Shown here piece by piece: positions 447 through 26,521 of a stretch of DNA of 64,000 nucleotides; within the stretch, counting starts at the first letter, position 1; each line of letters opens with the position of its first letter. Origin of the DNA: a virus; IMG/VR virus record IMGVR_UViG_3300025131_000006; one strand, written 5' to 3'. A program made the translations under genes and the position numbers. Under the pieces are notes generated by a model. That model ran no database searches, was not told the origin of the DNA, and saw only the letters and a program-made list of their open reading frames with translations.

Positions 447-1373
447 ATGAGCTTTATAGACAAGCCGATTCAATGGGACATGTCGAAAGACGACGCGGCA
501 AAATCAATCCACGAGAGGTTCCGCAATCGTCAGTTTTGGTTGGAGGTTGTGTGTGAGACGCCCTTAGAAGGGGCGGACTACCCGAAGATGCTTGATGTTG
601 CCCGTGACAAGGCACGTCGAGTGGACGTGCCACGATCGTCGGATGAGTTTCTTGATGAGATTCGCACTTCTCGACCCCGTAAGCTCTGCGTGTTCAAGGG
701 TTTCAAGAAAGGCCCGTACACGTGGTGGGCGGCGATCGTGGAGTTCGGCGATCCGACGATTCGAAGAATGCTTCGTTCGCGAGTCGAAAAGTCCGAAGAC
801 GATTTGGTTCCGGGGGTTGAAGAGCGTCGGGTTTACGCACTCTTTAACGGTTGGACGTCAAGGCGTGGCACGGAGGCTGTCTTGGTGGATTACTCTGGTT
901 CGAGCGAGATTATGGGAAAAACCCATACGGTGACGGATGCCCGCGAGTTCATGCAGTACATGCTGGATGCTCGCGTGGGAGACCGCGTGACGGACGGTTA
1001 CGGACCATCTTTTGAGTTGGAAGACATTGATCTTGGCTCGTCGGAGTTGCCTCGCATCGAGGGATTGCCTCCGGTTGTTCCGAGAGAACGTAAGCCGACA
1101 GGACGCAAGTCTTGGGAAGAGGAGCATCGACCGTGGGAGGACGAAGAGGAAGACGATGACGACATGGAAGTCTTGTCTCGACGCCCCCGAACGGAGTCGA
1201 GATCCGATAGAGAAGAGAGCAGCGGGTTCGAAGAACACAAACGTCGAAAAGCGACGGAAGATTCGAAGGGATCGGATTTTTGGGGTCGCACCGAGCCAGA
1301 GGGTGCCCCTGATGCGGGAGTTACCGACCTGGAAAAAGCGGCTCGTAATCGCAGAAAGTCTTCGGATTGGTAA
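447..1373 (+). CDS. Hypothetical protein with acidic disordered tail and C-terminal RRKSSDW tag
   Basis: GAGGT RBS before ATG 447; ends LEKAARNRRKSSDW*. Confidence 0.8.
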   Translation: MSFIDKPIQWDMSKDDAAKSIHERFRNRQFWLEVVCETPLEGADYPKMLDVARDKARRVDVPRSSDEFLDEIRTSRPRKLCVFKGFKKGPYTWWAAIVEFGDPTIRRMLRSRVEKSEDDLVPGVEERRVYALFNGWTSRRGTEAVLVDYSGSSEIMGKTHTVTDAREFMQYMLDARVGDRVTDGYGPSFELEDIDLGSSELPRIEGLPPVVPRERKPTGRKSWEEEHRPWEDEEEDDDDMEVLSRRPRTESRSDREESSGFEEHKRRKATEDSKGSDFWGRTEPEGAPDAGVTDLEKAARNRRKSSDW

Positions 1374-1390
1374 GCTAGATACGGGAGGAT

Positions 1391-3529
1391 GTGTTGCGGG
1401 AACAGATGAGTCTGCCCCTTATGCCCCCAAAGGGACGTCAAGATGAAGCAGTGGTGGAGATTGGGGCTTTGCCCCGGCTCCCGCCTGCGGGTCGTAGTGA
1501 CTTGGAGTTGGTGGAGGAGGAGCCGAAGTCGTCTGTGCGGGTTCGGTTCCGGGGTGCGTACTTTTACGTCCATCCTGCGAGTCAGTTGAGCATAGAGGTT
1601 GAGCGTTCTATCTCTTTTCAACGCAAAGGATTCGAGAAGACTTTTACTTACCAAAAGGGTAAGTGGGATGGGTACACTTCGTTGTTCAAGCGTGTCCGAG
1701 GGGAGGACACCTTGGAGGTTCCGATTGGGATGTATCCGCAGTTTGCGGCGGGGTGCGATCTGCACGGCGTCAGCGTCGTGGTTGACAATAGTCGAATGCG
1801 TCCGATGTCTGTGGTGCCTCCGAACTTGGAGTGGTGGAGGCTCCAGGGGAAAGACGGGGAGATTGAGCTATACGATTATCAGTTGGACACGGTGGGGCAT
1901 ACGACCTACGATGAGGACGTGTATAAGCTCTCCCCGGAGAAAGCAGAAGAGTTGTCGAGTGGCCTTGGGTTGTTGACGCGATACAGGGTCAATGGTTGCG
2001 GTATTTGGCGATCGGCGACGGGATCAGGGAAGACGACAGCCGTGGCGGGATTGATCCAAAAGCTTGGTGTCCGCGTTGTTTTTGTGGTGTACGGTACAGA
2101 GTTAGTGGAACAAACGGCGGAGAGGTTTAAGCAGATGTTGGCTCCGTGGCTTGAGCGTCACGGGTTGGATGTGGAAGACGCGATCCGTGTGTGCAACAAG
2201 AAAAGCACGGAGTTTGGGCTCATTACAGTTGCGGGGTCGTCGCTCTTGGCGGCAGCACTCAATAGGCCGGAAGCTGTGAAGCGAGAGGCAGGTCGCTTGT
2301 CAAGTGCTGCGATGGATCTGCTTGATCCTGCATTGTTTCGATCGGATGAAGAAAAGGAGGCGATCGAGAAGATGCGGGACTTCGTCTCGAAGTGGTTTCG
2401 TGTGTGCAGGAAAGAGAGCTACGATAAGGCAATTCGGGACTTCGGGGATGATTGGAAGGGGTTGTCGGAAGACGTGTTAGATGAGCCATTCCGATTGGTG
2501 GGTGGTACGTTTTTGATGCGTCAGTCTTCTGGCGACCTTACAGAGGAGACGCAGACGGAGTTCTATGAGAGGTTGTCGAAGGTTTTTCTCTCGATGCACA
2601 CTCTCCCAAGGAGGGCGAAAAAAGCACTCTCTCGAAGAGATCAGGTTGCTTCGGGGCTACAGAGAGCAGGTTTGTTGATCGGCGACGAGGTCCACCTGGC
2701 AGGCGGCAAGGGTTATCACGAGGTGTTGATGGCTTGCCCGGCGTATTATCGCGTAGGGATGTCAGGAACGCCATTAGAGCGGACGGATGGCCAGAACATT
2801 AGGGTGATCGCTGGATTCGGCGAGATCTTGTCGCATGTTTCCAACAAGGACATGCAAGAGGCGGATGTTGTCCCGAACGTCAACATCAACTTTGTCTCGA
2901 CCAAAGGGGGTCCATCGATCAAATTGTCAAAGGGGTGGCTTTGGAATGACGTAGTGGATCTCGGAATATCTGGGTATTCATTGAGAAACGACATCATTTC
3001 GTTCTTGGTGCATCGTGCATACCTCGCGAACAAGCAGTCATTGGTGCTGTTCCGGTCTCGTGTTCATGGAGAGAACTTGTCCGTGTTTTTGGATGTATGG
3101 GGAGTTCCCCACACTAAGTTGGACGGTCGCTCACCAATGGAAGATCGTTTGGCGGCATTGGATAGGTTTCGTAGCGGTACGGAGTTGGCGTTGGTCGCGA
3201 GCGATATTTTTGGGACAGGTATCGACATCCCCGATGGTTTTGATCTTTTGATTAACGCAGGGGGTGGGAAGGGAAGATCGAAGGACGACGATCGCGGCGG
3301 GATAAAGATTTTGCAGCGATTGGGTAGAGGTTTGCGTGGAGATTCGGACCATACTTTGGAGTTTTGGGACTTCTACGACGACCATTTGTGGAGATTGGCT
3401 CAACATGGAGAGAGCCGATTCAAATTGTATGAAGAGCAAGATTGTTTTACGATGCAAGATGTTTCGTGGAGGGATTTGCTCCCTCCCGAAGTGATTGCTC
3501 GGTATGAACCAGAAGGGAGTTTGTTGTGA
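1391..3529 (+). CDS. Superfamily 2 DExH DNA helicase (UvsW-like)
   Basis: SATGSGKT (Walker A), DEVH, MSGTP (motif III), QRLGRGLR (motif VI). Confidence 0.9.
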   Translation: MLREQMSLPLMPPKGRQDEAVVEIGALPRLPPAGRSDLELVEEEPKSSVRVRFRGAYFYVHPASQLSIEVERSISFQRKGFEKTFTYQKGKWDGYTSLFKRVRGEDTLEVPIGMYPQFAAGCDLHGVSVVVDNSRMRPMSVVPPNLEWWRLQGKDGEIELYDYQLDTVGHTTYDEDVYKLSPEKAEELSSGLGLLTRYRVNGCGIWRSATGSGKTTAVAGLIQKLGVRVVFVVYGTELVEQTAERFKQMLAPWLERHGLDVEDAIRVCNKKSTEFGLITVAGSSLLAAALNRPEAVKREAGRLSSAAMDLLDPALFRSDEEKEAIEKMRDFVSKWFRVCRKESYDKAIRDFGDDWKGLSEDVLDEPFRLVGGTFLMRQSSGDLTEETQTEFYERLSKVFLSMHTLPRRAKKALSRRDQVASGLQRAGLLIGDEVHLAGGKGYHEVLMACPAYYRVGMSGTPLERTDGQNIRVIAGFGEILSHVSNKDMQEADVVPNVNINFVSTKGGPSIKLSKGWLWNDVVDLGISGYSLRNDIISFLVHRAYLANKQSLVLFRSRVHGENLSVFLDVWGVPHTKLDGRSPMEDRLAALDRFRSGTELALVASDIFGTGIDIPDGFDLLINAGGGKGRSKDDDRGGIKILQRLGRGLRGDSDHTLEFWDFYDDHLWRLAQHGESRFKLYEEQDCFTMQDVSWRDLLPPEVIARYEPEGSLL

Positions 3530-5221: not shown

Positions 5222-6607
5222 TTGATGGTAACACCGGGAGTTGCGGGTCCAGAGGCGTTTGAGAAATTTGCCTTTGGCGACGGTATGCAGAAAGACGTGC
5301 TGCGATTGATGGCACGAGAGCAGTTGTTTTCGGAGGCTTCGGTTCATTGGATTGAGCCGAAGTACTTCGGGACAGGGGCACAGAGATGGATGGCCAAGGC
5401 CCAAATCCGTTTCTTTGAAAGATACATGATGCCGCCAACAAAGAGCGAAGTGTTGGAGGTTTTGCGCAAGTCACAGGTGTTGGGCGAGGTAACCGATGTC
5501 TTGGTTTCGGACATCTCTCGCTTGACGGGGGAGATATACGACGAGCCGTTGTCGGGGTCTCGCGAGTTTACATTGGACTCCGTCAGGGGGTTTGCTCGCA
5601 AAAGAGCGTGGCAGTCGGCCATATTGGAGGCTCTGCCTTATTTGGAGATGGGAGATGCCGATCGGGTTGATCTGATCATGGAGCGAGCCAAGTCGTCCGT
5701 GTATGATTTGGAAGCGGGCGGGTATTGGCTGTTCGAGACTGTAGAGGAGAGAGCCCGGCGAAGGGCAATGGACGAGGAGACCGGGGGGGATGTGTTTCCT
5801 TTGGGGATACCTCCGCTAGACCTGGCTTTACGCCGGGGCGGCATTGGTCCTGGGGAAGTCGTTATGTGGATCGCGGAGAAAGGGGGCGGGAAATCAATTG
5901 CCTTGTGCCATACGGCTCGACACGCTGTCTTCTCCCATGGTCGCGTCGCGATATTTTCGTTCGAGATGGCCGAGGAGCAGATCGCAGATCGCTTGGATGC
6001 GGGATTCGGTGGCGTCAGCATGTGGAGTATGGTCGCCGAGCAAGAGAAAATGATGGAGAACTTGCGGTTTTTAACAGGCAGGTTCCCGCGCAGCGTCTTT
6101 ATTCGCCGTTACCCCACCAAGGGAGCAACCATATCGGACATAAAAAGATGCTTGGACTCTCTGCGGAGGCAGCACAGTTGGACGCCTCACGTTATCGTTT
6201 TGGACTATTCTTCGATCGTCCGTCCTTCTCGATCGCGAGAGAGAAAGAACGAGGAGCTTCAGGAAGTCGTCGAGGATTTTCGTGGATTGTGTGTTGAGGT
6301 GGGTGCTGCGGGCTACACAGCAGCGCAACTGAATCGGATGGGAGCAGCACGTCGTGTCGCAGATGGAACGCATGCAGCGGGTTCTTGGGACCAACTTGCT
6401 ACGGTCGATTACTCATATATTATCAATCAAACATTGGAGGAGCGGGAGCGAAACATGATTCGTATCTTGATAGAGAAAGCTCGCGATGGCCTCTCCAAGT
6501 TAGAGATTGGGCCTCTGGAGACTGAATGGGCCAAGATGAGATTTATCGCTCCCATCCACGCACCTCCGTGGGAGATCCGTGAAAAGTACGGCATTTACTT
6601 CAAGTAG
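5222..6607 (+). CDS. dnaB: DnaB-like replicative helicase
   Basis: AEKGGGKS Walker A, FSFEM, VLDY Walker B, AAQLNR motif. Confidence 0.9.
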   Translation: MMVTPGVAGPEAFEKFAFGDGMQKDVLRLMAREQLFSEASVHWIEPKYFGTGAQRWMAKAQIRFFERYMMPPTKSEVLEVLRKSQVLGEVTDVLVSDISRLTGEIYDEPLSGSREFTLDSVRGFARKRAWQSAILEALPYLEMGDADRVDLIMERAKSSVYDLEAGGYWLFETVEERARRRAMDEETGGDVFPLGIPPLDLALRRGGIGPGEVVMWIAEKGGGKSIALCHTARHAVFSHGRVAIFSFEMAEEQIADRLDAGFGGVSMWSMVAEQEKMMENLRFLTGRFPRSVFIRRYPTKGATISDIKRCLDSLRRQHSWTPHVIVLDYSSIVRPSRSRERKNEELQEVVEDFRGLCVEVGAAGYTAAQLNRMGAARRVADGTHAAGSWDQLATVDYSYIINQTLEERERNMIRILIEKARDGLSKLEIGPLETEWAKMRFIAPIHAPPWEIREKYGIYFK

Positions 6608-6622: not shown

Positions 6623-7765
6623 ATGTCTGATATTGGGAGTCTTCGGTTCGAAGATCACGAGATAGAAAGAGTTCGCCATGCTGCGAATGTGGTGGAGCTT
6701 GTGGGGTCTGTGGTTAAGTTGACTCGTGCGGGGTCTTCTTTCAAGGGTTGCTGTCCTTTCCACCAGGAGAAGACCCCATCGTTTTTTGTTGAACCCGAAA
6801 AGAAGGTGTATTACTGCTTTGGTTGCGGTGCGAGAGGAGATGCTATCACGTTCATGCAGGAGATGTTCTCCCTGTCTTTTGCGGATGCTATTCGCGAGCT
6901 TGCTCACCGGCACAGCATCTCTTTGGGGGATGGTGCGTTTAGGGACTTTACTGCCAAGGTGATGCGGGCTCTTCACCCACCAGCTACGACGTGGGCAGTG
7001 CCAGGCCGAAGTGATTGCCGAGATGAGGGGGTTCGGGTTGAATCTATCGCCAAGGTTATGTCGCACCACAGGATTGACGCTCCCGCAGGGATGGCTCGTT
7101 TGGGTCATCCGATGATTTGCGAGATCAACGATTACGTGGAGGGTCGCGGTTTTTCGGTGGAGGATTTGGCCACCAAGGGGTATGGCGGTTTTGTTTTTGG
7201 TCCGCACGGCGGGAGGCTTTTTATCCCGTGTGTGATGGACGGTGACTTGGTTTTCTGGCAGACACGTTCGATTGTCGATCGCCAGGATATGTACGGAAGG
7301 GTTCCACCAAAGTACCTGAGTGCGCCGGATGTGACGTCGGGGATATGTATCTATAATTTGGATGTGGCCAAGAAGTTTCCGCTTGTTCATGTGGTGGAGG
7401 GTGCGTTTGACGCGGAGACTGTAGGGGATGACGCCATATCGATGTTTGGGTGTCGAGTCACGGCGGCACAGGCTCGCGTATTGGCTTTGCGAGGGTTTCG
7501 AGAGTTAAACTTGTGCTTTGACCCCGATGCTTGGAAAAAAGAACACAAGGGCAGTATCGACCGGGAGCCTCCTGTGTTGGCGGCAGGTCGGGCTATTTTG
7601 GAAGAGGGTATGGCCTTGCGTGTTTCTATCTTGGAAGGGAGAGACCCCAACGAGATGGGGAGAGATGCAGTGCGAGAGGTATTGGGACGTTCTAAGTCTG
7701 TTGCAGATGTGGTATTTTTAGAGAGTCTTGTTGCGCGTGTCGGGGGTATGTTGTCTTCGTCTTAG
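6623..7765 (+). CDS. dnaG: DNA primase (CHC2 zinc finger + TOPRIM)
   Basis: CPFHQEKTPSF...CFGC zinc finger; VVEGAFD and CFDPD TOPRIM motifs. Confidence 0.92.
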   Translation: MSDIGSLRFEDHEIERVRHAANVVELVGSVVKLTRAGSSFKGCCPFHQEKTPSFFVEPEKKVYYCFGCGARGDAITFMQEMFSLSFADAIRELAHRHSISLGDGAFRDFTAKVMRALHPPATTWAVPGRSDCRDEGVRVESIAKVMSHHRIDAPAGMARLGHPMICEINDYVEGRGFSVEDLATKGYGGFVFGPHGGRLFIPCVMDGDLVFWQTRSIVDRQDMYGRVPPKYLSAPDVTSGICIYNLDVAKKFPLVHVVEGAFDAETVGDDAISMFGCRVTAAQARVLALRGFRELNLCFDPDAWKKEHKGSIDREPPVLAAGRAILEEGMALRVSILEGRDPNEMGRDAVREVLGRSKSVADVVFLESLVARVGGMLSSS

Positions 7766-8454: not shown

Positions 8455-9060
8455 ATGCCAAGAACAAAGACGCCGCACCTCGAAAGTCACATTTACGGTG
8501 TTCAAAAGATGGGAGCCAGGGAAGGTATGGATATTGAACGCATGAGAGTTCTGGGGTATTCGGTTCATCCCGGTGCCATTATGCAGCTTCACAACAAAGG
8601 AAAGCCGTGGAGGATTTACTTGACTTGCACGACGGGTGGGTCAAATAAGTTTTGGGAGGCGTGGTGGGAGGGAGTCGGGTTTACGCCGAAGAGTCGGTAT
8701 GGAGCCATCGGAACGAATGGTCGGACTTCGGAAAGAGCGGCTCTTTGGTGTGCCCGAAAGGCTCAAGAGAAAGCAACGAGTGTACGGTCACAGTACGTGA
8801 GACCGGAAGGAAGCCTCTCTTCTAGGGGTGCTATCAAGTGGCTAGAAGACCATTTGGACCCGTTAGGTGCGATGAGGTTATCCACGCCGGGATCGACAAC
8901 TCCGGAAGCCCCTCCAACGGAGACCGATACGACCGCTGAGACTAAGACCGCACCGCGACGAAAGACTCGGCGTAAAAAATCCCCTCGCCCCAAGGTGAAG
9001 TCAAAGCCTAAGAGCTTGTCTGAAATCGCCCAAGCGAGAAGAAAAAGCAGCGATTGGTAG
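8455..9060 (+). CDS. WGR-domain-like protein with C-terminal RRKSSDW tag
   Basis: YLTCTTGGSNKFWEA...RYGAIGTNG matches the WGR pattern; basic linker; ends LSEIAQARRKSSDW*. Confidence 0.7.
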   Translation: MPRTKTPHLESHIYGVQKMGAREGMDIERMRVLGYSVHPGAIMQLHNKGKPWRIYLTCTTGGSNKFWEAWWEGVGFTPKSRYGAIGTNGRTSERAALWCARKAQEKATSVRSQYVRPEGSLSSRGAIKWLEDHLDPLGAMRLSTPGSTTPEAPPTETDTTAETKTAPRRKTRRKKSPRPKVKSKPKSLSEIAQARRKSSDW

Positions 9061-9061: not shown

Positions 9062-9592
9062 ATGTTTACAAAAAGCCCACAATGTCTGGACTCCTTTGAA
9101 GATGCATTGGAGTCAATGCGGAATTATAGAGCGTGGCGGGTGCGTCTTGAGAAAGATGGTCTTGTTATTGAGTTTTGGGCGTACCCTTCGGCCTTTAATA
9201 ATGTGTATCTTCGGAAGTGCGAAGTGTTGGAACTCAGGGACTGTAGAGAGTGTACCTCTGTTACCCTGAATTATATGTTGGATCGCGTTCCGGGGTACTT
9301 GGATGCAGGGTTCCTCATCTGTAGATCTCCAGGAGTTTTGGAAGCTCCATCGAATGCGGACTTCTCGTGGTCGGAGTCGGTGATGATTCCGACAAAATAC
9401 AGAGGGCATCCTCCTGTGGCCCCTTTTCCTTCGGCTATCAGGAGACCGAGAGTGCCATCGAGTAAAGCCTCTTATCGAAGTAAGAGGGCTCCTCGGAAAA
9501 AGAAGAAAGTGGATAATAGTAGCCAGATCACCATTGAAGAGCATGGATTGGCAAGTATCGCTGCCAAGCGGAAAAAGAATAGCGATTGGTAG
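9062..9592 (+). CDS. Hypothetical protein with C-terminal RKKNSDW tag
   Basis: Coupled ORF; ends LASIAAKRKKNSDW*. Confidence 0.75.
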   Translation: MFTKSPQCLDSFEDALESMRNYRAWRVRLEKDGLVIEFWAYPSAFNNVYLRKCEVLELRDCRECTSVTLNYMLDRVPGYLDAGFLICRSPGVLEAPSNADFSWSESVMIPTKYRGHPPVAPFPSAIRRPRVPSSKASYRSKRAPRKKKKVDNSSQITIEEHGLASIAAKRKKNSDW

Positions 9593-9684: not shown

Positions 9685-10953
9685 ATGTCTGAATTCGAGA
9701 GTATCCCTGCCCCTTCCGAATTGATTGCCCCTGCTACTGCTGAAACGGTGGAGGCTCCCCCGGTCCTTCCGCCTGTTGTCACCGAGCCGATCTTGTCGGC
9801 GGAAGAGCGGGCCGAGTCTGCGGCTTCTCGTCGCGGTGGTGCTGGCCTCCAAAAATACGACACCGACGGAAATCCGGTCTGCCGTCTTTGCGGTCGCGGC
9901 GTCGAAGACATGGCGAAGCACGTCCAAGAAGCTCACGGTGTCAATATCACCGAATACGCCAAAGAGTATCCCGGTTGGCCTTTGGTCTCCAAGAAGGTCA
10001 AGGGGCTCGGCGACGGACTCTCGTACTTGGAACGAGAGAAGAAAAAATTCTCGGTGTTTGAAACGTTCGGTTTTCATTGGCCTGAAAAGCCCGACAAAAC
10101 CGTCGATGGATACGCCGAAAGAGGCCCCCTGTGCCCCACGGTCGATCCCTTCTACGTGTTCGATCCCGAAGTCACGATGGATGCCCTCATGGCTATGCAC
10201 CTCGGCGACAAAGTCCTGACCGTTGGTCCCACCGGATCGGGCAAATCTTCCCTGTGGCAGCAAATCGCGGCTCGCCTTGGTATGAACTTTCTCCGCATCA
10301 ACTTCGATGCCGGTGTCACCCGACCCGATCTCGTCGGTCAGTTCGTGGTCAAGGGTCGAGAGATGGAGTTCGCCTACGGTGCCCTGCCTCGCGGTATGGC
10401 TCTGCCCGGCACGATCATCTGCTTCGACGAGTGGGATGCTGTCTCGGAAGAGTGTGCTTTCGTTCTCCAACGCCCCTTGGAGGAAGACTCCCAACTGATG
10501 ATTCTGGAGATCGGAGATCAAGTGGTCTCCCTGCACCCGGACAATATCATCGTTGCCACGTCGAACACCACCGGACTCGGTGACGATTCGGGCCTCTACT
10601 CCTCCGGTACCCGCATCCAGAACTACGCCACTGTCAACCGCTTCTCTATGACGATCAAGTTGGACTACCTTGCGAAAGAGCAAGAGGAGCAGATCCTGCT
10701 CCGTCGGTTCGAAGACCTCTCCGAAATGGAAGCTCGTGCTCTGGTCAAGATCGTCAACGCGACCCGCTCCTCCTCCGAGAAAGGTGAGATCGCCGCTCCC
10801 CTGAGTACTCGCGATCTCGTGAATTGGTGCCAGAAGTACATCTTGACGGGTGATGTCGAAAAGGCCGCGAAGCTCGCCTTTATCCACCGCTCGCCTCGCG
10901 AAGATCAAGATGTCCTGCGCGGCATCGTCCGTCGCGGATGGCGTGGAGAGTAA
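9685..10953 (+). CDS. CobS/MoxR-family AAA+ ATPase with N-terminal C2H2 zinc finger
   Basis: GPTGSGKS, DLVG, FDEWD, ATSNT, NRF, STRDL; N-terminal CRLC...H...H. Confidence 0.88.
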   Translation: MSEFESIPAPSELIAPATAETVEAPPVLPPVVTEPILSAEERAESAASRRGGAGLQKYDTDGNPVCRLCGRGVEDMAKHVQEAHGVNITEYAKEYPGWPLVSKKVKGLGDGLSYLEREKKKFSVFETFGFHWPEKPDKTVDGYAERGPLCPTVDPFYVFDPEVTMDALMAMHLGDKVLTVGPTGSGKSSLWQQIAARLGMNFLRINFDAGVTRPDLVGQFVVKGREMEFAYGALPRGMALPGTIICFDEWDAVSEECAFVLQRPLEEDSQLMILEIGDQVVSLHPDNIIVATSNTTGLGDDSGLYSSGTRIQNYATVNRFSMTIKLDYLAKEQEEQILLRRFEDLSEMEARALVKIVNATRSSSEKGEIAAPLSTRDLVNWCQKYILTGDVEKAAKLAFIHRSPREDQDVLRGIVRRGWRGE

Positions 10954-11056: not shown

Positions 11057-11149
11057 CGCACATTTTCTGTGTCTGCTTTGCTCTCTTGTTTGTATATATA
11101 TAGGCATGAGTCAGAACAGGTAAGCCAAGAGCAACGGAGAAAAGAGAAA

Positions 11150-13090
11150 ATGATGAGAAGACCAGGAAGAGCGGCACGAGACTCTTTAAATAGTTCCTTG
11201 GAAAGGATTGCGCGAGTCATCAGCGACAGGTACGACATTAACGTTGTCTTTCATAAAGACGACTGCTACACGGACGGTAGGACTATCGTTCTTCCTTCTG
11301 TTCCCGCCTCGGCAGATGCCGACTTCCTGCAAGCCCTTGAAGGCAAGTTGGATCACGAAGCCGGACACATCATTTTCACCGATTGGGATGCCGTGAACCG
11401 CTCCGCTGAACACCCTCAATTGAAGTGGTGGACGAACGTTTTGGAAGATGCTCGTATCGAGGCGTGTATCTGCGAAGCGTGGCCGGGTTGTCGGGCGAAC
11501 TTGGAGTTCACTCAACGGTGGCTCTTGGAAAAAGATCTCGATGAGTGGCACTCCTTTGATAAGGAGAACAAAGAGGCCAAACTCGCGATTCTGTACGCTA
11601 AGGGCTATGGCAGTTGGTTTTTGGAGATCCCCGATGCCGAATCGATGTTCAAAGAAGCGTGGGAAGACATCCTCCCTGCTCTGGGTTTGGCGGCGAAGCA
11701 AGAGTCCGCTTTTCACTCCCTCGCCTTGGCCATTTGGGTCATGGATACGATCGATCCCGATTGGCGTGAGGCCGGTCGCGAAGGTCTCGCTCCGTTCGTG
11801 CGTTCGAGCGAGGAGTTGGACGAGCTTTTGCGTACCCTCGCAGGAGCCGAGCGAGAGTTGGCCCGTATCGGTCGTGGTGGCAAAGTCATCGAAGGCGAAG
11901 GTGGTTCCGGCAGCACCGATCGATTCTCCGAAGCTTCTCGTCGTGCCCGAATCGAGGAAGAGGCGGGAGAGAGATACGGACACGGTATTACCCGGTCTTT
12001 TCTGGAAAAGTACGACGGCACCGACAGAGAAGAGAGGAAGCGTCGATCTCTGGCTCGAACGGGGGGCATGGGGGGGCGCCCTGCGGAGCATGGTCCTCGC
12101 TCCACGGATGACTTCGGTTCCAAGGCTCTGTCCGGGGTAGCAGGAGACATTCGACATCGCATCGGTGTTCCCGGCTCCGAACACTATGTTCCGGCGACAA
12201 CCGAAGACGACGTGATCCAATTGCAGTGGGACGGAAACTTGCATTGGTTCCAAACGAACCTCCAGGAGGTTCGAAAGATGTCGGGTGCCATGTCTCGCAG
12301 ACTCCGTATGGTCATGATGTCTAAGGCATACCCAAGCACGGAATACGAAAAGCACTCTGGACGTCTGAATGTCCGGTCTCTCCCTCGGTTCCTGATGACC
12401 GGCAACCCTCGCTGTTTCAAGCAGCGGTCAAGAGGCGAGGAGTTGTGTGCGAGAGCAACGCTGTTGGTCGATGAGTCCGGTTCCATGCATGGCACTCGTA
12501 TCCAAGAAGCTCGGCGTGCTGCGATTCTGTTTGGTGAGTTTTGTGAGCAGTTGGGTATCCCCTTCGAGATTTTGGGTTTCTCCACGACCTCGACAGGCCA
12601 CGAGCAAAAGAGATACGATCGTGCTGCTCCCGAAGACAAGTCGTACTACACGCGGTGGGGGAATCACCTTCTGTTGGTGTACAAGCGATTCGATGAGCAG
12701 TGGCGTCGTGTGGGTCATCGCATTCAACACATGTCGGGTCGCGACCAGAACTACGATGGTGAGTCTGTGCAGATCGCAGCCCAACGCTTGCTCATGGCGG
12801 CACAGCCCGGTGAGCGAAAGCTCCTGTTTGTCTTCTCCGACGGCTCTCCCGTTCAAAGCATCTACGAACACGCGGATGCCCACCAAGAGTATCTTCGCAC
12901 GGTCACGGGGTATCTTCCGGAAGTCGGTATCGAGGCCATTGGTATTGGCATCTGCACCGAAGCTGTGAAACACTACTACCCGAATTGGGTTGTGATCAAC
13001 GATCCCCGTCAATTGTCCGGTGCCCAAATGTCGAAGCTGCGAGAAGTCTTTTTGGAGTCCAAAAAGCCGAAGCGTCGGCGAGCAAGATAG
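11150..13090 (+). CDS. CobT-like protein (HExxH domain + C-terminal VWA)
   Basis: HEAGH and NVLEDARIE; VWA MIDAS VDESGSM and FSDG; adjacent to MoxR ATPase. Confidence 0.88.
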   Translation: MMRRPGRAARDSLNSSLERIARVISDRYDINVVFHKDDCYTDGRTIVLPSVPASADADFLQALEGKLDHEAGHIIFTDWDAVNRSAEHPQLKWWTNVLEDARIEACICEAWPGCRANLEFTQRWLLEKDLDEWHSFDKENKEAKLAILYAKGYGSWFLEIPDAESMFKEAWEDILPALGLAAKQESAFHSLALAIWVMDTIDPDWREAGREGLAPFVRSSEELDELLRTLAGAERELARIGRGGKVIEGEGGSGSTDRFSEASRRARIEEEAGERYGHGITRSFLEKYDGTDREERKRRSLARTGGMGGRPAEHGPRSTDDFGSKALSGVAGDIRHRIGVPGSEHYVPATTEDDVIQLQWDGNLHWFQTNLQEVRKMSGAMSRRLRMVMMSKAYPSTEYEKHSGRLNVRSLPRFLMTGNPRCFKQRSRGEELCARATLLVDESGSMHGTRIQEARRAAILFGEFCEQLGIPFEILGFSTTSTGHEQKRYDRAAPEDKSYYTRWGNHLLLVYKRFDEQWRRVGHRIQHMSGRDQNYDGESVQIAAQRLLMAAQPGERKLLFVFSDGSPVQSIYEHADAHQEYLRTVTGYLPEVGIEAIGIGICTEAVKHYYPNWVVINDPRQLSGAQMSKLREVFLESKKPKRRRAR

Positions 13091-13255
13091 ACGGCATTGT
13101 CGATATACAGGGGGTGCACCTCAAAATAGATTGACAAGAAAGACATTACAGAGTGAATGTATGCGGAGCCCGGAAGACCGGGCTCCGTTTTTGTGCATCG
13201 TGACAAAATTGGTCACGAAAGCCACACAGATCAAAACAAAACAGAGGTAACGGGC

Positions 13256-13918: not shown

Positions 13919-13920
13919 AC
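13906..13920. repeat. Dispersed palindrome copy 4 (GTTCAGTGACTAAAC)
   Basis: Contains the TAA stop of the sigma-like gene. Confidence 0.9.
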
Positions 13921-13934
13921 TTTTTTTGAGGTGA

Positions 13935-18226: not shown

Positions 18227-21200
18227 ATGAGCAACCGAGTTCTCGTTTTTTCCGACTTGCAAGCACACACGCATCATGCGTACGCAAGGTCATTGCCGAA
18301 TGGCCGGAATACCCGACTCAAGGCAGCGACGGACTGCTTGAAGTATATCATCGACTTTGCAAGGGAGAACCGGATTCGGGATGTGGTCTTCTGCGGGGAT
18401 CTCTTCGAGACCAAGAATCGAATCCCGATGGTTGTTCTCCAAGAAGTGTGCGAATTGATCGTTGATTCGGTGGTTCACGGGTTGCGTTGGTTTATGATCC
18501 CAGGGAACCATGACTATGCAGTGCGTAACGGAGAGGTCCACGCCTTGGCGTTATTGCGTGGGCACGAGGACATTTACATTTTTGATGAGGATTGGTCGCG
18601 TGTTCCATTTCATAACTTTGGGGCATCCTTGGACAGTTCCATGTCCGCACGAGGGGGCGTGCCGACCTTGATCCACACGGTCAAATATGCAGAGAAATTA
18701 CCAGTAGAGGTGTTCGATGTGGAGCCGGACGAGGGCTCTCTGCGGGTATTGTTGGCTCATGGTTATGTGGAGGGCATGTGCGACTTCCCCCACGACTTCC
18801 CGGAAGACGAGATGGCCCAAGACGGGGAGTGGATACGAAGAGCGTGGCTCCGAGGCTTCGACGCGGCTCTGGTGGGTCACTACCACAAGCCAATGGTTGA
18901 GAACATTCACGGGTGCCAGGTTATTGTTCCGGGTTGCCCGTATCAAGAGAAGTCCGACGCTATGGGCCAAGAGCGAGGGTTCTTTGTTTGGGACTTGGAC
19001 AGTCGGGAGGCAACGAAGCATGTGATCCCGGAGAGCGTGGCACCGAGATTTGTGAAAGTGTCCATTGGGGCCGATGGTGTTGTGGAAGAGGAGGTCGCGT
19101 CCAACAGCATTGTATTATTGGAGCCTGCGGTAAGAGGGGTGCCTGCGGATGTGATTAAGCAAGCTCGTCAGAGCCTGATGGCTTCGGGTGCCTCGTACGT
19201 AGAGCCCCTGACGTTGCCACGCACTCCGGTCGTCCGGGTGGAGCGTCCAGCGATCGAGGTCGGCACCCGAAGTACACCGTTGAGTGTGTTAAAGCGTGTC
19301 CTTCGTTCGGATGCTATCGACCTGCGGGGGTGTTCTCTGCGTGAGTTGGAGCGAAAGGCTTCGGCTATTATCGCGGAGCATGGGCTCTTGCGAAAAGGGG
19401 CAAAGGGTGGATCTCCTGTGGTGGAGATGTATTTGAGTGCGCGAGATGCGTTTGCATTCGGTCGGGTTGATGTGGAGTTGACCGACCAGGGCTTGCTTGG
19501 AGTGGGGGGTGTCAACATGGAGACTTCTCAGGCGAGCAGCAATGGTGCGGGGAAGTCCACGCTTCCGGATGTGGTGTCGTTAGTCTTGTTTGGGAAGTCT
19601 CTGCGAAATGTGCGGGCAGATGAAACGATCCGCCGGGGAGCACGATCGTATCGAGGCATGATTCGGTTTGCGACATCCGATGGCAAGCGATACGAGATCT
19701 TTCGTTGCAGAAAAGACAAAGAGTTCGGGGGCGGGCTGTTCTTCCGGAAGGGATGGGGTGAGTACGACTTGGAGGAATTTGAACTTCCAGGAAAAGACGT
19801 CGATATGCGCGGAGGAGAGGGGAAGGAGACGCAGGATCATATCTCAGCGTCGCTCAGTATGGGGTTCGGGTTGTTCCGTGCCTTAGTTCTGTTGGGAGAA
19901 GGTGGAGACTTTCGGTTTGCAGCGTTGGGAGATTCGGCAAAAAAAGATGTCTTGTCAGATATTCTGGGGGTGTCGTTCTATGATGATCTCGCCAAAAACG
20001 CTCGGTCTCTTGCGAACACTCTGAGCGACGAGCAGGACAAATTGGAAGCAGAAGCAGGAGTACTGCTTTCGGAGAAGGAGGACGCAAACCGCGAGTGGCA
20101 TGTCGTGCAAGAGTCATTGGTGCGTTGGGAGAGAAAGCACCTGTATGAGATCCAAGGTGCCGAGGAGACTTTGGTTGCCGCACAAAAGGTTTTGCGACTC
20201 GCAGACGAAAAAATCATTGCACCGGCAGCGGGAAGTTCAGTGACTGAACTGAAAGATACGCGGGTTCGTGTTCTGGAATTCCGGGAATTGCTCGAACAAG
20301 CCAGAGAGGACCATGCAGGTCTCTTGGAGGAAGCGAACGAGAGTGCTCTTGCTTCTCAATCCAAGGTTGTCGGCCTGTTGTCGGATGTTCGATCGGTCGA
20401 GGCCCAATTGAAAGATCGGCGTGACTTGATCGCTCGTGGGAGGTGCGGAGAGTGCGGGCAAATCGTGACGGAAGATGTCTGCGAAGGCAAACTCTCCGAG
20501 TTAGAGGGACGCTTGGCAGAGTTGCAGGAAGATCTCCATGTTGCCAAAGGTCGAAAGTCCAGTTTGTCCGCGATCTACAACGATAGGCTTGTCTCCAGCA
20601 CAGGGGATACCTCAGAATTGGAAGAGACCTTGGGAGGGTTTCGGGCGAGAGTCGAGGAATTGGAGGCCGACGGTTTGTTGATCGCACAGGCGAAAGACCG
20701 GCGTGCTCAAGCTGCTCGCTTGCACGGGATACGCAGAGATGAGGTCGAGCGTTTGAAAGCCGAGGCGAATCCACACACAGGAGAGAGCGAAAGGCTCGTA
20801 GGGAGATCGGCCCGGTTGGTGACCGAGCGGGACATAAAGTTGCGAGAGCAGGCGTCGAAGCACTTGGACATGCTGCACTACAAAGTCCTCGCGGATGCGT
20901 TCGGACCCAAAGGGGCTCGATCAATGCTGTTTGACGAACTGATGCCGCAGTTGAACGATCGTTTGGAGTTATACTCCGACCTTTTTTGCGGGGGGTATAT
21001 TCGAATATCGGTGCAGTCGCAGTCTGAAACTGCCAGGGGAAAGGTGCAAGAGAAGATTGGGCTTGTGGTGGACTTCCCATCCGGTTCGTGTTCTTATGGC
21101 TCATGCAGTGCAGGAGAGAAGAGGCGAGTGGATTTGCCTGTTCTGTTTGCTCTCCAAGACGTCGCTGCTGCTTACGGTGTGGGGTTGGGCTTCTGCTTTT

Positions 21201-21421
21201 TGGACGAAGCGTTCGAGAATGTGGACGCAGCGGGCAAGGTTGGACTGATGGACCTGCTCTCCGAGGTGTCGGGTCGATCGCACACTTCCACGGTCTTTGT
21301 CGTCACTCACGATGAGGACTTGTTGGGATTGTTCGATCCGGTGATGTGGTGTTATCGTGTAGGCGGGCGAACGAGCTTGTTTTTCGGAACATCGACTGCC
21401 CCAACAGAAGTGCCTGCTTGA
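18227..21421 (+). CDS. Fused SbcD(Mre11)-SbcC(Rad50) nuclease/ATPase
   Basis: Phosphoesterase SDLQ, CGD, GNHD, GHYH; then NGAGKS Walker A, coiled coil with CGEC hook, CSAGE signature, FLDE, VVTH in one ORF. Confidence 0.9.
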   Translation: MSNRVLVFSDLQAHTHHAYARSLPNGRNTRLKAATDCLKYIIDFARENRIRDVVFCGDLFETKNRIPMVVLQEVCELIVDSVVHGLRWFMIPGNHDYAVRNGEVHALALLRGHEDIYIFDEDWSRVPFHNFGASLDSSMSARGGVPTLIHTVKYAEKLPVEVFDVEPDEGSLRVLLAHGYVEGMCDFPHDFPEDEMAQDGEWIRRAWLRGFDAALVGHYHKPMVENIHGCQVIVPGCPYQEKSDAMGQERGFFVWDLDSREATKHVIPESVAPRFVKVSIGADGVVEEEVASNSIVLLEPAVRGVPADVIKQARQSLMASGASYVEPLTLPRTPVVRVERPAIEVGTRSTPLSVLKRVLRSDAIDLRGCSLRELERKASAIIAEHGLLRKGAKGGSPVVEMYLSARDAFAFGRVDVELTDQGLLGVGGVNMETSQASSNGAGKSTLPDVVSLVLFGKSLRNVRADETIRRGARSYRGMIRFATSDGKRYEIFRCRKDKEFGGGLFFRKGWGEYDLEEFELPGKDVDMRGGEGKETQDHISASLSMGFGLFRALVLLGEGGDFRFAALGDSAKKDVLSDILGVSFYDDLAKNARSLANTLSDEQDKLEAEAGVLLSEKEDANREWHVVQESLVRWERKHLYEIQGAEETLVAAQKVLRLADEKIIAPAAGSSVTELKDTRVRVLEFRELLEQAREDHAGLLEEANESALASQSKVVGLLSDVRSVEAQLKDRRDLIARGRCGECGQIVTEDVCEGKLSELEGRLAELQEDLHVAKGRKSSLSAIYNDRLVSSTGDTSELEETLGGFRARVEELEADGLLIAQAKDRRAQAARLHGIRRDEVERLKAEANPHTGESERLVGRSARLVTERDIKLREQASKHLDMLHYKVLADAFGPKGARSMLFDELMPQLNDRLELYSDLFCGGYIRISVQSQSETARGKVQEKIGLVVDFPSGSCSYGSCSAGEKRRVDLPVLFALQDVAAAYGVGLGFCFLDEAFENVDAAGKVGLMDLLSEVSGRSHTSTVFVVTHDEDLLGLFDPVMWCYRVGGRTSLFFGTSTAPTEVPA
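20235..20249. repeat. Dispersed palindrome copy 6 (intragenic, GTTCAGTGACTGAAC)
   Basis: Encodes SSVTE in the SbcC coiled-coil region. Confidence 0.85.
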
Positions 21422-21969: not shown

Positions 21970-22533
21970 ATGGGACTGTTCCGACGATCGTCGCAACCTA
22001 TCGTGCGATTGGATATTCCAATTACGCCGATCCCCAAAGGAAGACCTCGTTTCTCCAGGAGGGGTTCGCGGACATACACACCCGCTCGAACTTTGGATTA
22101 TGAGAAGGCTCTTCGTGCAGAGGTTGTAAAGGGCTTGTCAGACCAGGCGGATGAGTTCCCGGTGTATCCAAAAGGGGTGCATGTTCGAATCATGGTGGAT
22201 TTTATCTTCGAGAGGCCAAAAACGAAGTCTCGAAAGAAAGACCCTGACGGGTTATTGTGGCGTATCGGGAGAGAGGATGGGGATAATCTTGAAAAAGCGG
22301 TCCTCGACGCCCTAAAAGGCGTTCTGTGGCATGATGACAACCAAGTTGTCTCTGTGACATGGCGAAAGATGTACGCACCCAAAAGAACTCCATGCTCTGA
22401 GCATGGAACTTTAATGGGGGAGGCTCGCGGTCCTCGTGTTTGCATATACACGCGGGCTGTGACAGAATGTCCTGTGCAACGCACCTGTAGTTTCGGTGCT
22501 TTACTCCCGTTCGAGGATTATGAAGATGAGTAA
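21970..22533 (+). CDS. rusA: RusA-family Holliday junction resolvase
   Basis: PIPKGRPRF; DGDNLEKAVLDALKGVLWHDDNQV. Confidence 0.88.
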   Translation: MGLFRRSSQPIVRLDIPITPIPKGRPRFSRRGSRTYTPARTLDYEKALRAEVVKGLSDQADEFPVYPKGVHVRIMVDFIFERPKTKSRKKDPDGLLWRIGREDGDNLEKAVLDALKGVLWHDDNQVVSVTWRKMYAPKRTPCSEHGTLMGEARGPRVCIYTRAVTECPVQRTCSFGALLPFEDYEDE

Positions 22534-22694: not shown

Positions 22695-24416
22695 TTGATG
22701 AGTGACGCACGTAAAATTATTGCACCTACCCCGGATATTATCGCAGGAGCACGGGATGTCTCCGAGCGTTGGTATCTGAACTTGGCTCTTTGGTCACAGT
22801 ATTCGGGGCTGCGTGTAGACGGTCACCCTTTCTCGTTCGATCGACATCTTTATTTGCTGCCTATCTACATGGATCGCAGCTTGGATATTGTGGTGATGAA
22901 GTCGGCACAGATGGGGCTGACCATTGCGGAGTTGCTTCGCTGTTTTCACCAAGCCCTCCACCACGAGGCATGGGGTTATCCGTACCCAATTAAGATTGGT
23001 TTTTACTTCCCGGACAAGTCGGGTGTTTTGGATGTTGTTCGAGATCGCGTCGAGCCATTGTTGGCGTCGAGCCCTGAGTTACAACCCTACTCGACGCAAC
23101 CGACCAAGCTCTTGAAGCGAATCGGGCCAAGTTCTGTGTACTTTCGGTATATGGCCGGTAAATCGACAAAGGATTCGATTCCGCTGATGTCCTTGTTCTT
23201 CGATGAGGTTCGACTGATGTCGCCTCGTGATGTCTTTCAGGCATACGAACGTGTCTCTGCCGCCGAGATTAAGTACAAGTTTCACGCTTCAACAGCGGGC
23301 GTGCCCGACACCGATATTCATGGTCTCTTCTTGGAGTCAGACCAAAAGTGGTTCTACACGAGATGCACGCGCTGCCAGTACGAGCAGTGCCTGCCTCTGG
23401 AGTTTCCGGACTGTATCGCCGAGCACACGATCGGGACAGAGAAAGGGAAGATATACTACATCTGTAAGAGTTGTCGGCTCCCGCTCGAAGATAATCAACG
23501 GGGTCGGTATATTCCACATGGAGATCCGCTTCACGAGGTCTCCGGCTACCAATTCAGCCAGTTGGTTTCCAAGAAGATTACGGCTCGCGAGATCTGGAGA
23601 ATGTTCCAGACAACGGACAATATCCCGGAGTTCTGGAACGCAAAGCTTGGAATGCCCTATGTGGACGAGGAGAACAGGCCCGTGCACATGGGTGGCTTAG
23701 TTGATAACGAATACCAGAACATCAGCACATTGGCCGAGTGGGGGCAGTACACAGGGCAGACGTATATGGGCGTAGACCAGATGATGAATCTGAACTACGT
23801 GACGATTATCGAGGTGCGAGGAGAAGAGAGGCGTCTTGTCTGGTTCGAGATCATCGAAGACCGAGATCCTTTTGCCCGACTGTACCAACTTATGGAAGAT
23901 TACAGTGTATCTGTGTGTGTGTGTGACAGTGAGCCCAATACAAATGACGCTTTAAAGTTCGCCAGGGCATTCAATCGCCGGGTGTTTCTCGCGAAGTACG
24001 GGTTGTATCCGGACTTAGTCAGGTGGGATGACCATTGGCGGCCCAAGCGGGCTCACAAAAAGGCTGCACAGGAAGAGTTTTACCAATATCGGGTGTTTCT
24101 GGACAAGTACCAAAGTATCGGTCGAACCTTGGAGTGGATTCGTCGGGGTCGAGTGCAGTGGCCGAATCCGGAGAGGCTTGTACAAGAAGCTCTTCCTTTG
24201 GGAGGTGGCGCCAGGATGCCGTATCCTGTGATGAAAACACACGCCTTTCACCATTATTCCAGCCCTATCCGAATCAAGATCATGGAAAACGAGGAAGAGC
24301 AGAGATACAGGTTCGCGTGGAAGTTCACGATGGGAGATCCGCATGCTTTGGATTCTTTGAACTACGCGATCACGGCTTCCTTGAGGCGCCGTTCGATCGC
24401 GGGTTGGTGGTCGTAA
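22695..24416 (+). CDS. terL: Terminase large subunit (GpA-like)
   Basis: KSAQMGLT Walker A, FFDEV Walker B, ASTA, CxxC pairs, nuclease MGVD and PHALDS. Confidence 0.85.
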   Translation: MMSDARKIIAPTPDIIAGARDVSERWYLNLALWSQYSGLRVDGHPFSFDRHLYLLPIYMDRSLDIVVMKSAQMGLTIAELLRCFHQALHHEAWGYPYPIKIGFYFPDKSGVLDVVRDRVEPLLASSPELQPYSTQPTKLLKRIGPSSVYFRYMAGKSTKDSIPLMSLFFDEVRLMSPRDVFQAYERVSAAEIKYKFHASTAGVPDTDIHGLFLESDQKWFYTRCTRCQYEQCLPLEFPDCIAEHTIGTEKGKIYYICKSCRLPLEDNQRGRYIPHGDPLHEVSGYQFSQLVSKKITAREIWRMFQTTDNIPEFWNAKLGMPYVDEENRPVHMGGLVDNEYQNISTLAEWGQYTGQTYMGVDQMMNLNYVTIIEVRGEERRLVWFEIIEDRDPFARLYQLMEDYSVSVCVCDSEPNTNDALKFARAFNRRVFLAKYGLYPDLVRWDDHWRPKRAHKKAAQEEFYQYRVFLDKYQSIGRTLEWIRRGRVQWPNPERLVQEALPLGGGARMPYPVMKTHAFHHYSSPIRIKIMENEEEQRYRFAWKFTMGDPHALDSLNYAITASLRRRSIAGWWS

Positions 24417-24433: not shown

Positions 24434-24448
24434 GCGGGAGTTGGGTTC

Positions 24449-24784: not shown

Positions 24785-25064
24785 GAGGTCTCCCGTGGGA
24801 CTCACCGGAGCAGAGTACAATTCGTTCAACGAAGAGACCGGAGAGTCTGTGTTTATCGCGGTGCAGCCGGAGGACGTCTTGGGGCACCTTGCTCGCGGAT
24901 GCACGATCGCTGAGATCCAGAAATCGATTCAAGCTCCCCGCGAGGTCATTGAGCATGTGATCATGCAGATTCCTGTGATGGTTGCATGGAGAGAGCAGCA
25001 GGCCGAGCAAGCGTCGAATGTTCAAAGGTTGCCGGAAGTTTCTTCTGTGCCAATGGGGGAGTAA
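24771..25064 (+). CDS. Hypothetical protein
   Basis: GGAG RBS before ATG. Confidence 0.6.
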   Translation: MPIYERSPVGLTGAEYNSFNEETGESVFIAVQPEDVLGHLARGCTIAEIQKSIQAPREVIEHVIMQIPVMVAWREQQAEQASNVQRLPEVSSVPMGE

Positions 25065-25074
25065 CGTGTCTCGC

Positions 25075-25539: not shown

Positions 25540-25618
25540 TTGTTTGGGGCTGTGCTTATATATGGGAGGAAACCAACCATATAGGTGCAATCGATGAAGG
25601 ACGAAAAGAAAAGAGAGA

Positions 25619-26521
25619 GTGACCTTTCCCATGCCCCCCGTTCGAGCCAGGCCAGGAGCAGCCGCTGCTGCGTTTGGTGCAATGCGTGGCGTGTCTGTTG
25701 AAGAGATGGAGAGGATGATCACAGAGGAAGACCTCGACGAGATAGAACGGAAGTCCGTCTCTAGACGATCAGCCCCTTATGCTCCAAGGACTTATCCGAC
25801 CTTTAAGTCGGTCAAACCAAGAAGTCCGGAGACAGGATTGCGGCGATTGAGAGAGGCCGAGATTGGTTCGGAAACAACGAGAGTTCTAGGAGCGGCAAAA
25901 GAAGATCTCTCGGAGATGATTTCGATTCACTTTCCAGTAAAGGGTGCTTCGACTATTGGCGGTATCTCATCTCCGGATGCACCTTGGTCTATCGAGATAG
26001 AGGCATCTACGATGCACGACTTTGAGTTGCGGGTCGTAATGCCTGTGTCTCAAGCATTCTTTGCGGATGGGCGGGTGATCCCGTGGACCCTGCGTGGGCT
26101 TCATTCGTGGAGTTCTTTGGGTTCTTTGCCGGAAGGCGTCCCAATCCCGGCGAGACAGTTTTATTGTAGATCTCTCGCTCACCCACGCGATTTGTTTTCG
26201 TCATGGGGGATGGATGCGGAGATGAGCTTGGGCTTAATGCCAGGGGAGTTTTGGATCTCAAATGGCGGAGTTTGGGTGTGGATATATAGTGCTTGGGTTC
26301 GTCTTTTGGATGTGGGGTCGTCTGATCTAAATGCACTTCGTCACAAAATAGGAGGGGCCGAACGAAGAGCCGTTCATGCTATGTCGTCAACAGATATGCC
26401 TATGTCGAGCCTGGAGTTTGAGCCTATCGTTATGGGTCGTGGTATAGTAGTCGAGAGTGACGTGGACACAGAGGCGTTGGAGAGAGCATCTTCTCAGCGA
26501 AAAAAAGAGAGTGATTGGTGA
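25619..26521 (+). CDS. Hypothetical protein with C-terminal RKKESDW tag
   Basis: Ends LERASSQRKKESDW*. Confidence 0.75.
   Translation: MTFPMPPVRARPGAAAAAFGAMRGVSVEEMERMITEEDLDEIERKSVSRRSAPYAPRTYPTFKSVKPRSPETGLRRLREAEIGSETTRVLGAAKEDLSEMISIHFPVKGASTIGGISSPDAPWSIEIEASTMHDFELRVVMPVSQAFFADGRVIPWTLRGLHSWSSLGSLPEGVPIPARQFYCRSLAHPRDLFSSWGMDAEMSLGLMPGEFWISNGGVWVWIYSAWVRLLDVGSSDLNALRHKIGGAERRAVHAMSSTDMPMSSLEFEPIVMGRGIVVESDVDTEALERASSQRKKESDW

Follow-up and report, generated by a model that had tools for sequence, protein, structure and literature searches.

A large uncultured phage of marine type encodes at least five unrelated proteins that share a C-terminal peptide of 14 residues, a short basic helix followed by Ser-Asp-Trp and the stop codon. 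The phage is represented by a 104,653-bp virus record, about 65% complete (IMG/VR record IMGVR_UViG_3300025131_000006, here G000), of which positions 7695-71694, a stretch of 64,000 nucleotides, make up the window analyzed; the same proteins are found also on a 160,757-bp contig. The tag persists in related phages, on proteins that have otherwise diverged. Very likely, then, it serves as a docking signal, and I am confident in regarding it as a motif shared for that purpose. As for what reads the tag, comparative genomics points to the phage's own CobS and CobT proteins, a candidate that I find credible without going so far as to call it probable.

Four of the carriers lie in the window, all on the plus strand, where the earlier note had placed them. 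Protein 1 (447..1373; 308 amino acids) belongs to no known family and is encoded directly upstream of a gene for an SNF2/ResIII (UvsW-like) helicase (1391-3529); its tag, LEKAARNRRKSSDW followed by the stop TAA, occupies 1329..1373. Protein 2 (8455..9060; 201 amino acids) consists of a WGR-like domain (residues ~39-115), a disordered basic linker rich in Ser, Thr, Pro and Lys, and the tag LSEIAQARRKSSDW, then TAG (9016..9060). It is followed at once by the gene for the orphan protein 3 (9062..9592; 176 amino acids; tag LASIAAKRKKNSDW, then TAG, at 9548..9592), which lies immediately upstream of cobS. Protein 4 (25619..26521), another orphan, is encoded downstream of the large terminase gene and has 300 amino acids if read from GTG 25619 or 296 if read from ATG 25631; it ends in LERASSQRKKESDW, then TGA (26477..26521). 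The fifth carrier, of 192 amino acids, lies outside the window on the minus strand (G000:C1 2185-2763), two genes away from a thymidine kinase gene, and its C-terminus is LAKIEKDRKEASDW before the stop.

A profile of the tag run over the complete record gives these five carriers and no others. The pattern L-x2-[AI]-x3-R-[RK]-K-x-S-D-W-stop, written as degenerate DNA, has only four matches in the window, and 100 shuffled versions have none. From the phage's own residue frequencies one would expect about 9e-7 C-termini of this kind among 120 open reading frames (ORFs). All five occurrences are C-terminal, and reading the 104.6-kb record in six frames gives no internal one. All five carriers are encoded among the replication genes, within 34 kb of the record's start.

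The tag is selected at the level of protein. Pairwise DNA identity within the tags is 45-64%, only 24 of the 61 cases of identical residues involve the same codon, the flanks (60 nt upstream and 40 nt downstream) are 15-35% identical, and all three stop codons are used. The earlier note had held that codons differ and that the tag is no DNA repeat, and these comparisons bear that out. It had also maintained that the protein bodies show no similarity. This too is so: the five bodies, stripped of their tags, give a best non-self BLASTP E-value of 0.03, which is not significant, so the carriers are not full-length paralogues of one another. Weak WGR matches aside, no significant Pfam or PHROG family was found for the five carriers of this phage or for ten carriers of the related genome G008, and the ESM Atlas gave no usable matches for the carriers. 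A short conserved peptide, set in a disordered context on nonhomologous proteins, with flanks that diverge, has the generic features of a short linear motif.

An AlphaFold2 (AF2) model of protein 2, built on a nine-member family alignment, has a WGR-like core with a predicted local distance difference test score (pLDDT) of 85-94, a disordered linker of about 60 residues, and then a helix over residues 188-198, within the tag (pLDDT 80-86), which leaves the last three residues free and nonhelical. The linker, short helix, basic patch and free terminal Trp sketched in the earlier note agree with this model. The assignment of the core to WGR comes from several sides: the family alignment has the signature ...NKFWE...[WY]GRIG...KGY and the model an alpha+beta fold of the expected kind, and the protein at the homologous position in Rhizobium phage RHph_X66 is annotated as a WGR protein. 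The Pfam WGR match is below threshold (E 0.068 in G000, 0.0016 in G008), and the best fold match in the PDB is 2ra8 (probability 0.99, E 0.014), the WGR domains of PARP1/2 coming lower (0.3-0.5).

How widely is the tag conserved? No close relatives were found at the level of nucleotide or exact peptide (megablast and tblastn against cultured phages; scans of IMG/VR with P0002 or CobS alone), and P0002 has no word-sharing homologue. Relatives were reached only through CobS homologues and alignments. Those homologues at 52-64% identity form a clade with the same gene order, and in every member the genes before cobS are tagged. The tails of these genes are ...LRELMRKRKRASTW and ...LKKKMRERQRKSEW in L006, ...ISEMISERRKKSSW and ...MAKAMSRRKRDSSW in L007, ...LKDRMKARKRQSSW and ...LHDRMEKRKNKSDW in L011, and ...LRRKMKKKQRASEW in L010 / G001; the two genes before cobS in the first three loci thus end in ...RKRASTW, ...RQRKSEW, ...RRKKSSW, ...RKRDSSW, ...RKRQSSW and ...RKNKSDW. 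Tags are not confined to this position. G008 (144 kb, 89% complete) bears them on at least 11 proteins, one of which ends in ...LKESMRRREEESDW, and the 54-kb fragment G001 on three. In both, the protein encoded upstream of the helicase, syntenic with protein 1, has the tag, even though the bodies are only 23-26% identical; in general, orthologues with 23-39% identity in their bodies retain the tag. The earlier note had named absence from the orthologues of related phages as one of the results that would refute it. What was found is the tag in those orthologues and in many further proteins.

The 24 tags collected from six genomes align without gaps, as had been claimed for the initial four, and give the consensus [L]1-x3-[M/I/A/L]5-[K/R]6-[K/R]7-[R/K]8-x3-S12-[D/E/S/K]13-W14-COOH. 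The terminal Trp and a basic residue at position 8 are present in all 24, Ser at position 12 and a hydrophobic residue at position 5 in 22 each, and Leu at position 1 in 17. Searches with profiles are underpowered for a motif of 14 residues: one made from the five tails returned from 5.8 billion proteins only the phage's own five, and the 24-tag profile returned from 1.84 billion representatives a single irrelevant protein of 3385 amino acids. Against the PDB the 24-tag profile had no match. Taken together, nonparalogous carriers, conservation in orthologues and the many tagged proteins of relatives give good support to the idea of a C-terminal docking or addressing peptide, acting as protein and common to otherwise unrelated proteins.

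Outside the clade the ending changes while the habit of sharing one persists. For each genome, the C-terminal eight residues of every called protein were clustered (BLOSUM62 score of at least 19), with internal windows as controls. The controls never gave clusters larger than three; the largest C-terminal clusters had five members in G000, eight in G008, six in G004, four and three in G006, and three in G007, the last at the ceiling of the controls. Each lineage appears to speak its own dialect: ...[RK]xA[LI]WNF in G004, ...KAxW and ...PW[KI]I[DE] in G006, ...PWAL in G007, ...A[KR]WR[LY]x in G018, and ...xEW or ...SYW on three genes before cobS in G036. Among cultured phages, the WGR protein of RHph_X66 and two other proteins end in ...[LN][YF]G[RA]F. 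E. coli phage Cyrano (SSU5-like) has a single candidate tail, ...ISWGSW, within the 42 kb inspected. Endings so specific to lineage suggest a reader that evolves along with them and hence a reader that is probably encoded by the phage. RHph_X66 (L214) has a further family of its own: three proteins (13392-13949, 35334-35666 and 35666-35974) share the motif ...TGDLAAA[IL][NS]..., so that this phage has two tag families, the other being ...[YF]G[RA]F on three different proteins.

The tags track a module of genes, primase-WGR-cobS-cobT. The WGR-like family of protein 2 directly precedes cobS, follows the primase gene, or both, in many phages with CobS and CobT, down to 34% identity in CobS, and its members always end in a basic stretch and a hydrophobic or aromatic C-terminus, such as ...RRKKEAKFEF, ...RKPLVLI or ...RKAMITI. 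If one asks how often the upstream neighbor of cobS has Trp among its last five residues, the answer is 15 of 34 nonredundant loci, compared with 75 of 708 other ORFs on the same strand (one-sided Fisher p 1.6e-6, without phylogenetic correction). The count includes a different family of small proteins that stands before cobS in other lineages and ends in ...[ST][DE]WD[IL]x. In the cultured Roseobacter phage CRP-810, the gene upstream of cobS ends in DDWSLLEA, where Trp is six residues from the end.

Relatives were sampled also by their large terminase, which gave four genomes that lack CobS: G035 (148 kb, 86% complete), G037, G038 and G041 (complete). Clustering of C-termini found no tag family in any of the four. 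A fifth, G034, seems to lack CobS, but its contig begins within cobT, so it is uninformative and was left out. When the genes of G000 are tabulated by genome, CobS and CobT alone occur in every tag-bearing genome and in none of the four tag-free ones. The tag-free G035 has, besides, a helicase, DnaB, SSB, RecA, Mre11-Rad50, the large terminase TerL, the portal protein and the adjoining protein of 493 amino acids. The candidate client genes co-occur, and are syntenic, with the MoxR/VWA pair, in a sample that is partly circular and uncorrected for phylogeny.

CobS (9685..10953, plus strand; 422 amino acids) is a MoxR AAA+ ATPase, judged by Pfam (AAA_5, CbbQ_C), by homologues and by an AF2 model. 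Its N-terminal extension contains a zinc-finger-like module of the C2H2 type, CRLCG...H-x4-H (9880..9939, plus strand; residues 66-84), which is present in all CobS proteins of the clade with S-x-W tags and absent from those of phages with other types of tag; it may tune recognition. CobT (11069..13090, plus strand, with a probable start at ATG 11150) is the main candidate for the reader itself. It has an N-domain resembling M48C peptidases (zincins), an acidic linker and a VWA domain (Pfam CobT, CobT_C), and it matches the CobT of PDB 9uka over its full length (E 7e-76). The MIDAS (metal-ion-dependent adhesion site) of the VWA domain, DESGS (DxSxS; 12470..12484, plus strand), is intact, and its D-x-S-G-S columns are invariant across an alignment of 30 CobT sequences. 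The zincin motif HEAGH (HExxH; 11354..11368, plus strand) has a conserved E-D-A-R-I-E some 25 residues after it. HExxH is retained in 35 of 42 rows of phage CobT (26 of 30 distinct sequences; orthologues in L006-L055), whereas Brucella CobT aligns there with D-S-M-A-L. That phage CobT retains both HExxH and E-D-x-R-I-E suggests that it may be an active metallopeptidase instead of a subunit of a chelatase.

Part of what makes this pair attractive as a reader is the precedent of the cobaltochelatase. In the CobSTN holoenzyme, CobN lies between CobT_N, described as a peptidase-M48C-like domain, and CobT_C, with its last two helices beside the CobT MIDAS (bioRxiv 10.64898/2026.07.21.739949), and a second preprint gives the motor cycle (10.64898/2026.10.09.757910). 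The genes for a MoxR-class AAA+ protein and a VWA-domain protein are adjacent in this phage, as recognition of clients in the manner of CobST would demand. The earlier note had nominated the pair as receptor. Synteny, phyletic pattern and the precedent of CobN at CobT speak for that nomination, though they fall short of a demonstration.

I propose that the tag is a short linear docking motif borne on the flexible linkers of unrelated, mostly orphan, nonstructural phage proteins. It would consist of an amphipathic basic helix of two to three turns (L1, M/I/A5, R8), then S12-[D/E]13-W14 with a free carboxylate, and it would recruit all carriers to one common partner. The likeliest partner would be the phage's own CobS/CobT, a MoxR-class AAA+ ring with a VWA adaptor that has a MIDAS and an M48-like zincin. 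If so, the helix, together with the carboxylate end S-[DE]-W, might mimic the C-terminal helices of CobN and bind the VWA/MIDAS face of CobT, possibly with help from CobT_N or the N-module of CobS. The MoxR ring would then pass ATP-driven movement to the client and remodel it, with processing by the zincin as a possibility. The ancestral client would be the WGR-like DNA-binding protein, the tag having spread from it later to at least 10 genes. The whole scheme, in which phage cobS/cobT encode a tag-reading machine with a still-active zincin, Trp and aromatic tags are a recruitment or degron code on at least 10 early nonstructural proteins destined to be remodeled or processed, the WGR protein came first and the dialects of the lineages coevolved with the reader, is offered tentatively, as more than I would bet on. 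A prediction of a complex of CobT_C, CobT_N and Mg with a 40-residue tail alignment, leaving out CobS and its zinc finger, scored 0.01, which is below the mark and says nothing for or against.

Several considerations weigh against CobS/CobT as the reader. The case is built on comparison, not on physical or structural binding. Since the tag-positive genomes were found through CobS, only the four tag-free genomes without CobS and the statistic on upstream genes escape circularity, and both counts are phylogenetically nonindependent. Most of the tagged genes of G008, that for the WGR protein included, are far from cobS. The complete genome G029 is CobS-positive and has no tag family, and G013, G018 and G036 have small ones only. 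The zinc finger of CobS is missing from phages whose tags are not of the S-x-W type and so cannot be a universal reader. About 35% of the genome is unread, hence a gene for some unseen hub may exist. Finally, the tails of distant lineages (PLVLI, FEF, WNF, [YF]GxF) resemble motifs that bind sliding clamps.

The last point invites a different view, that the tag tethers accessory proteins to a sliding clamp, either the host's beta clamp or an unrecognized one of the phage, or to some other hub such as the gp32-like SSB, RecA/UvsX or the helicase-primase. I consider it unlikely, though it has points in its favor. Unrelated proteins with a common hydrophobic or aromatic tail are the hallmark of clamp clients, the tails of distant lineages (PLVLI, AKFEF, A[LI]WNF, L[YF]G[RA]F) look the part, and the carriers are encoded in the region of replication, recombination and early genes, near those for helicase, primase, terminase and thymidine kinase. 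G001 even has a DnaN-like gene between those for primase and the WGR protein. Its product (G001:C1 31935-33209; 424 amino acids; PF00712) has no counterpart in G000, in G008, for all its tags, or in the other genomes checked. No T4-type clamp (PF02916) was found in five genomes, and with PF00712 confined to G001, there is no sign of a conserved phage clamp. Moreover, S-[DE]-W-COOH after a basic helix is without the hydrophobic residues, two or three of them, that characterize QL[SD]LF or QLxLxL, G035 has the helicase, DnaB, SSB, RecA and Mre11-Rad50 and yet no tags, and it is hard to see why tails that bind a conserved host clamp should vary so strongly from one lineage to the next. The same variation speaks against a signal read by a host AAA+ protease or unfoldase, in the manner of C-motif 2 (C-M2) of ClpX substrates and the ...RRKKAI of MuA, which would time the turnover of early proteins. 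The R-[RK]-K core does resemble the MuA/C-M2 class, which Flynn et al. reportedly described in 2003; one tail of G004 is ...RRKKAWI, and small orphan proteins of the early and replication region are of a kind that might need to be removed. But C-M2 lacks the helix, the invariant Ser and the Trp at the end that belong to the 14 conserved residues here, and termini differ sharply even among related phages. A degron of this sort is, I think, quite unlikely.

One might suppose instead that the tag is an address for virion cargo or assembly, loading proteins into the procapsid or handing them to an assembly chaperone, as encapsulin cargo peptides and the T4 capsid-targeting sequence do. Encapsulins, which have the HK97 fold, are known to have cargo tagged at the C-terminus behind a flexible linker, and a role in virion assembly has been proposed for the phage pair of MoxR and vWA-peptidase (PMC7824862). 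Against this, no carrier is found in the structural module. Furthermore, G000 has its structural genes in common with G004 and G035 and not with G008; the S-x-W tag goes instead with the replication module, which G000 has in common with G008 and G001. The idea is improbable. Least of all would I expect that the tag has no protein partner and that a basic helix with a terminal Trp simply binds DNA, RNA or membrane. The tag is strongly basic, to be sure, proteins 2 and 3 have SPKK-like linkers, and protein 2 has a nucleic-acid-binding WGR domain. Direct binding leaves unexplained, however, the nearly invariant Ser at -2, the Trp at the very end, the strictly C-terminal position and the discrete variants of different lineages, and in tags of G008 E-E-E replaces the basic patch. 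Readers of known C-terminal motifs were considered as well. The class I PDZ pattern (S/T-x-hydrophobic-COOH) is formally matched by S-[DES]-W-COOH in 22 of the 24 tags, and neither PDZ_2 nor Peptidase_S41 was found in G000, G008, G004, G006 or G001. The MIT domain has one match, below the Pfam threshold (25.8 bits, where 30 is required), in a helical and highly charged protein of 177 amino acids from the head module (43069-43599). Because the match is sub-threshold and the sequence charged, helical and scaffold-like, it is probably compositional. The protein, scaffold-like also by position, is a possible but weak alternative as a reader of C-terminal helices.

The carriers of the window sit in a replication and recombination module. 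After the SNF2/ResIII helicase come genes for a DnaB-like helicase (5222-6607) and a DnaG-type primase (6623-7765), and beyond cobT those for a sigma-70-like protein (13157-13918), a gp32-like SSB (15958-17226; 422 amino acids), RecA (17302-18189), an Mre11-Rad50 fusion (18227-21421), RusA (21970-22533) and a gpA-type large terminase (22695-24416). A class II ribonucleotide reductase is encoded on the minus strand (28277-30145). The structural module starts around a portal gene with an intein (36194-39337), and no tags are found from there onward. The SSB has a C-terminal docking tail of a different kind in the same module: it ends in ...PPPTDEDIPF, and DEDIPF is the classic tip of bacterial SSB (DDDVPF in the orthologue of L006, DDNDIPF in that of L007). 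Mre11 (metallophosphatase) and Rad50 (SbcC-type ATPase) are joined in one ORF of 1064 amino acids and are separate genes in RHph_X66 and Cyrano.

The intein of the portal gene includes a LAGLIDADG homing endonuclease (Pfam Intein_splicing, LAGLIDADG_3, Hom_end). Inteins of relatives sit elsewhere, in RecA (L006, L007), in DNA polymerase A (L008) and in some CobS homologues. Directly after the portal gene, a protein of 1220 amino acids (39417-43079) has a NUDIX hydrolase domain at its C-terminal end (residues 1094-1203), which is unusual in a head module; it is possibly an ejected or internal protein. A different pair of shared endings, ...RPSTPCPW and ...KRTPCPW, is found beyond the end of the window on the minus strand (G000:C1 74629-75294 and 76534-77160, or 66935-67600 and 68840-69466 in the numbering of the window). 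The neighbors of these two genes on the opposite strand end in ...CLCAAVPR[HY]QLSH, which looks like a local duplication of a unit of two genes.

Few unexplained genes are as widespread as cobS and cobT in marine, rhizobial and enterobacterial phages and phage-plasmids. Both are routinely annotated as genes for cobalamin synthesis and usually taken for auxiliary metabolic genes, though no CobN was seen in the annotated part of this genome. A portable, conserved tag that tracks the two genes would supply their machine with a set of clients, and a dozen orphan proteins in each genome with a common handle. It brings a testable hypothesis to a gene pair in need of one, and cultured relatives are at hand in RHph_X66, with its ...[YF]G[RA]F tags, and CRP-810, with ...DDWSLLEA upstream of cobS. 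If the reader should be a different hub, the tag would still amount to a new addressing code, one by which orphan phage proteins with linked functions are grouped. In either case it could serve as a modular recruitment tag. The earlier note knew of no description of the tag, and none was found in searches of the literature or in the PDB; nor did these turn up a description of a client code for phage CobS/CobT.

Tails of this general kind have been met before. The T4 proteins gp43, gp33 and gp55 dock on the clamp gp45 by their C-terminal tails. There, as in RB69 and with the motifs that bind bacterial beta clamps, unrelated proteins of one phage use a short common tail with an aromatic end as a docking handle. 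The present tag differs in being a basic helix with S-D-W and not a hydrophobic motif of the L-x-F type, and no conserved clamp gene was found along with it. MIM-MIT, the peroxisomal signal PTS1 with Pex5, EEVD-TPR, class I PDZ ligands, encapsulin cargo peptides and the tails of SspB and MuA on ClpX are all cases of a motif at the extreme C-terminus with one dedicated reader, and in many of them a flexible linker leads to a short helix or a free carboxylate. In sequence the tag matches none of them.

The nearest likenesses to the proposed reader are the cobaltochelatase CobS-CobT-CobN and other MoxR/VWA pairs, such as CbbQ-CbbO and NorQ-NorD. The two proteins are the same, CobS being the MoxR AAA+ component, and in the cobaltochelatase it is CobT that holds the client, with the client's C-terminal helices near the VWA MIDAS (bioRxiv 10.64898/2026.07.21.739949). 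There, however, the client is one large subunit with a broad interface, while the candidate clients here are many small unrelated proteins with a portable tail of 14 residues, and phage CobT, unlike that of Brucella, keeps its HExxH. The same architecture, HExxH and VWA with a MoxR partner, was noted in jumbo phages as a pair of MoxR and vWA-metallopeptidase, with a proposed role in virion assembly or processing and no client tag (Iyer, Anantharaman, Krishnan, Burroughs and Aravind 2021, PMC7824862); the proteins associated with it here are nonstructural and share a C-terminal tag. Shared C-terminal docking tails, whether of clamp clients, MIM-MIT, PTS1 or encapsulin cargo, are thus a familiar kind of device, of which this tag is a new variant.

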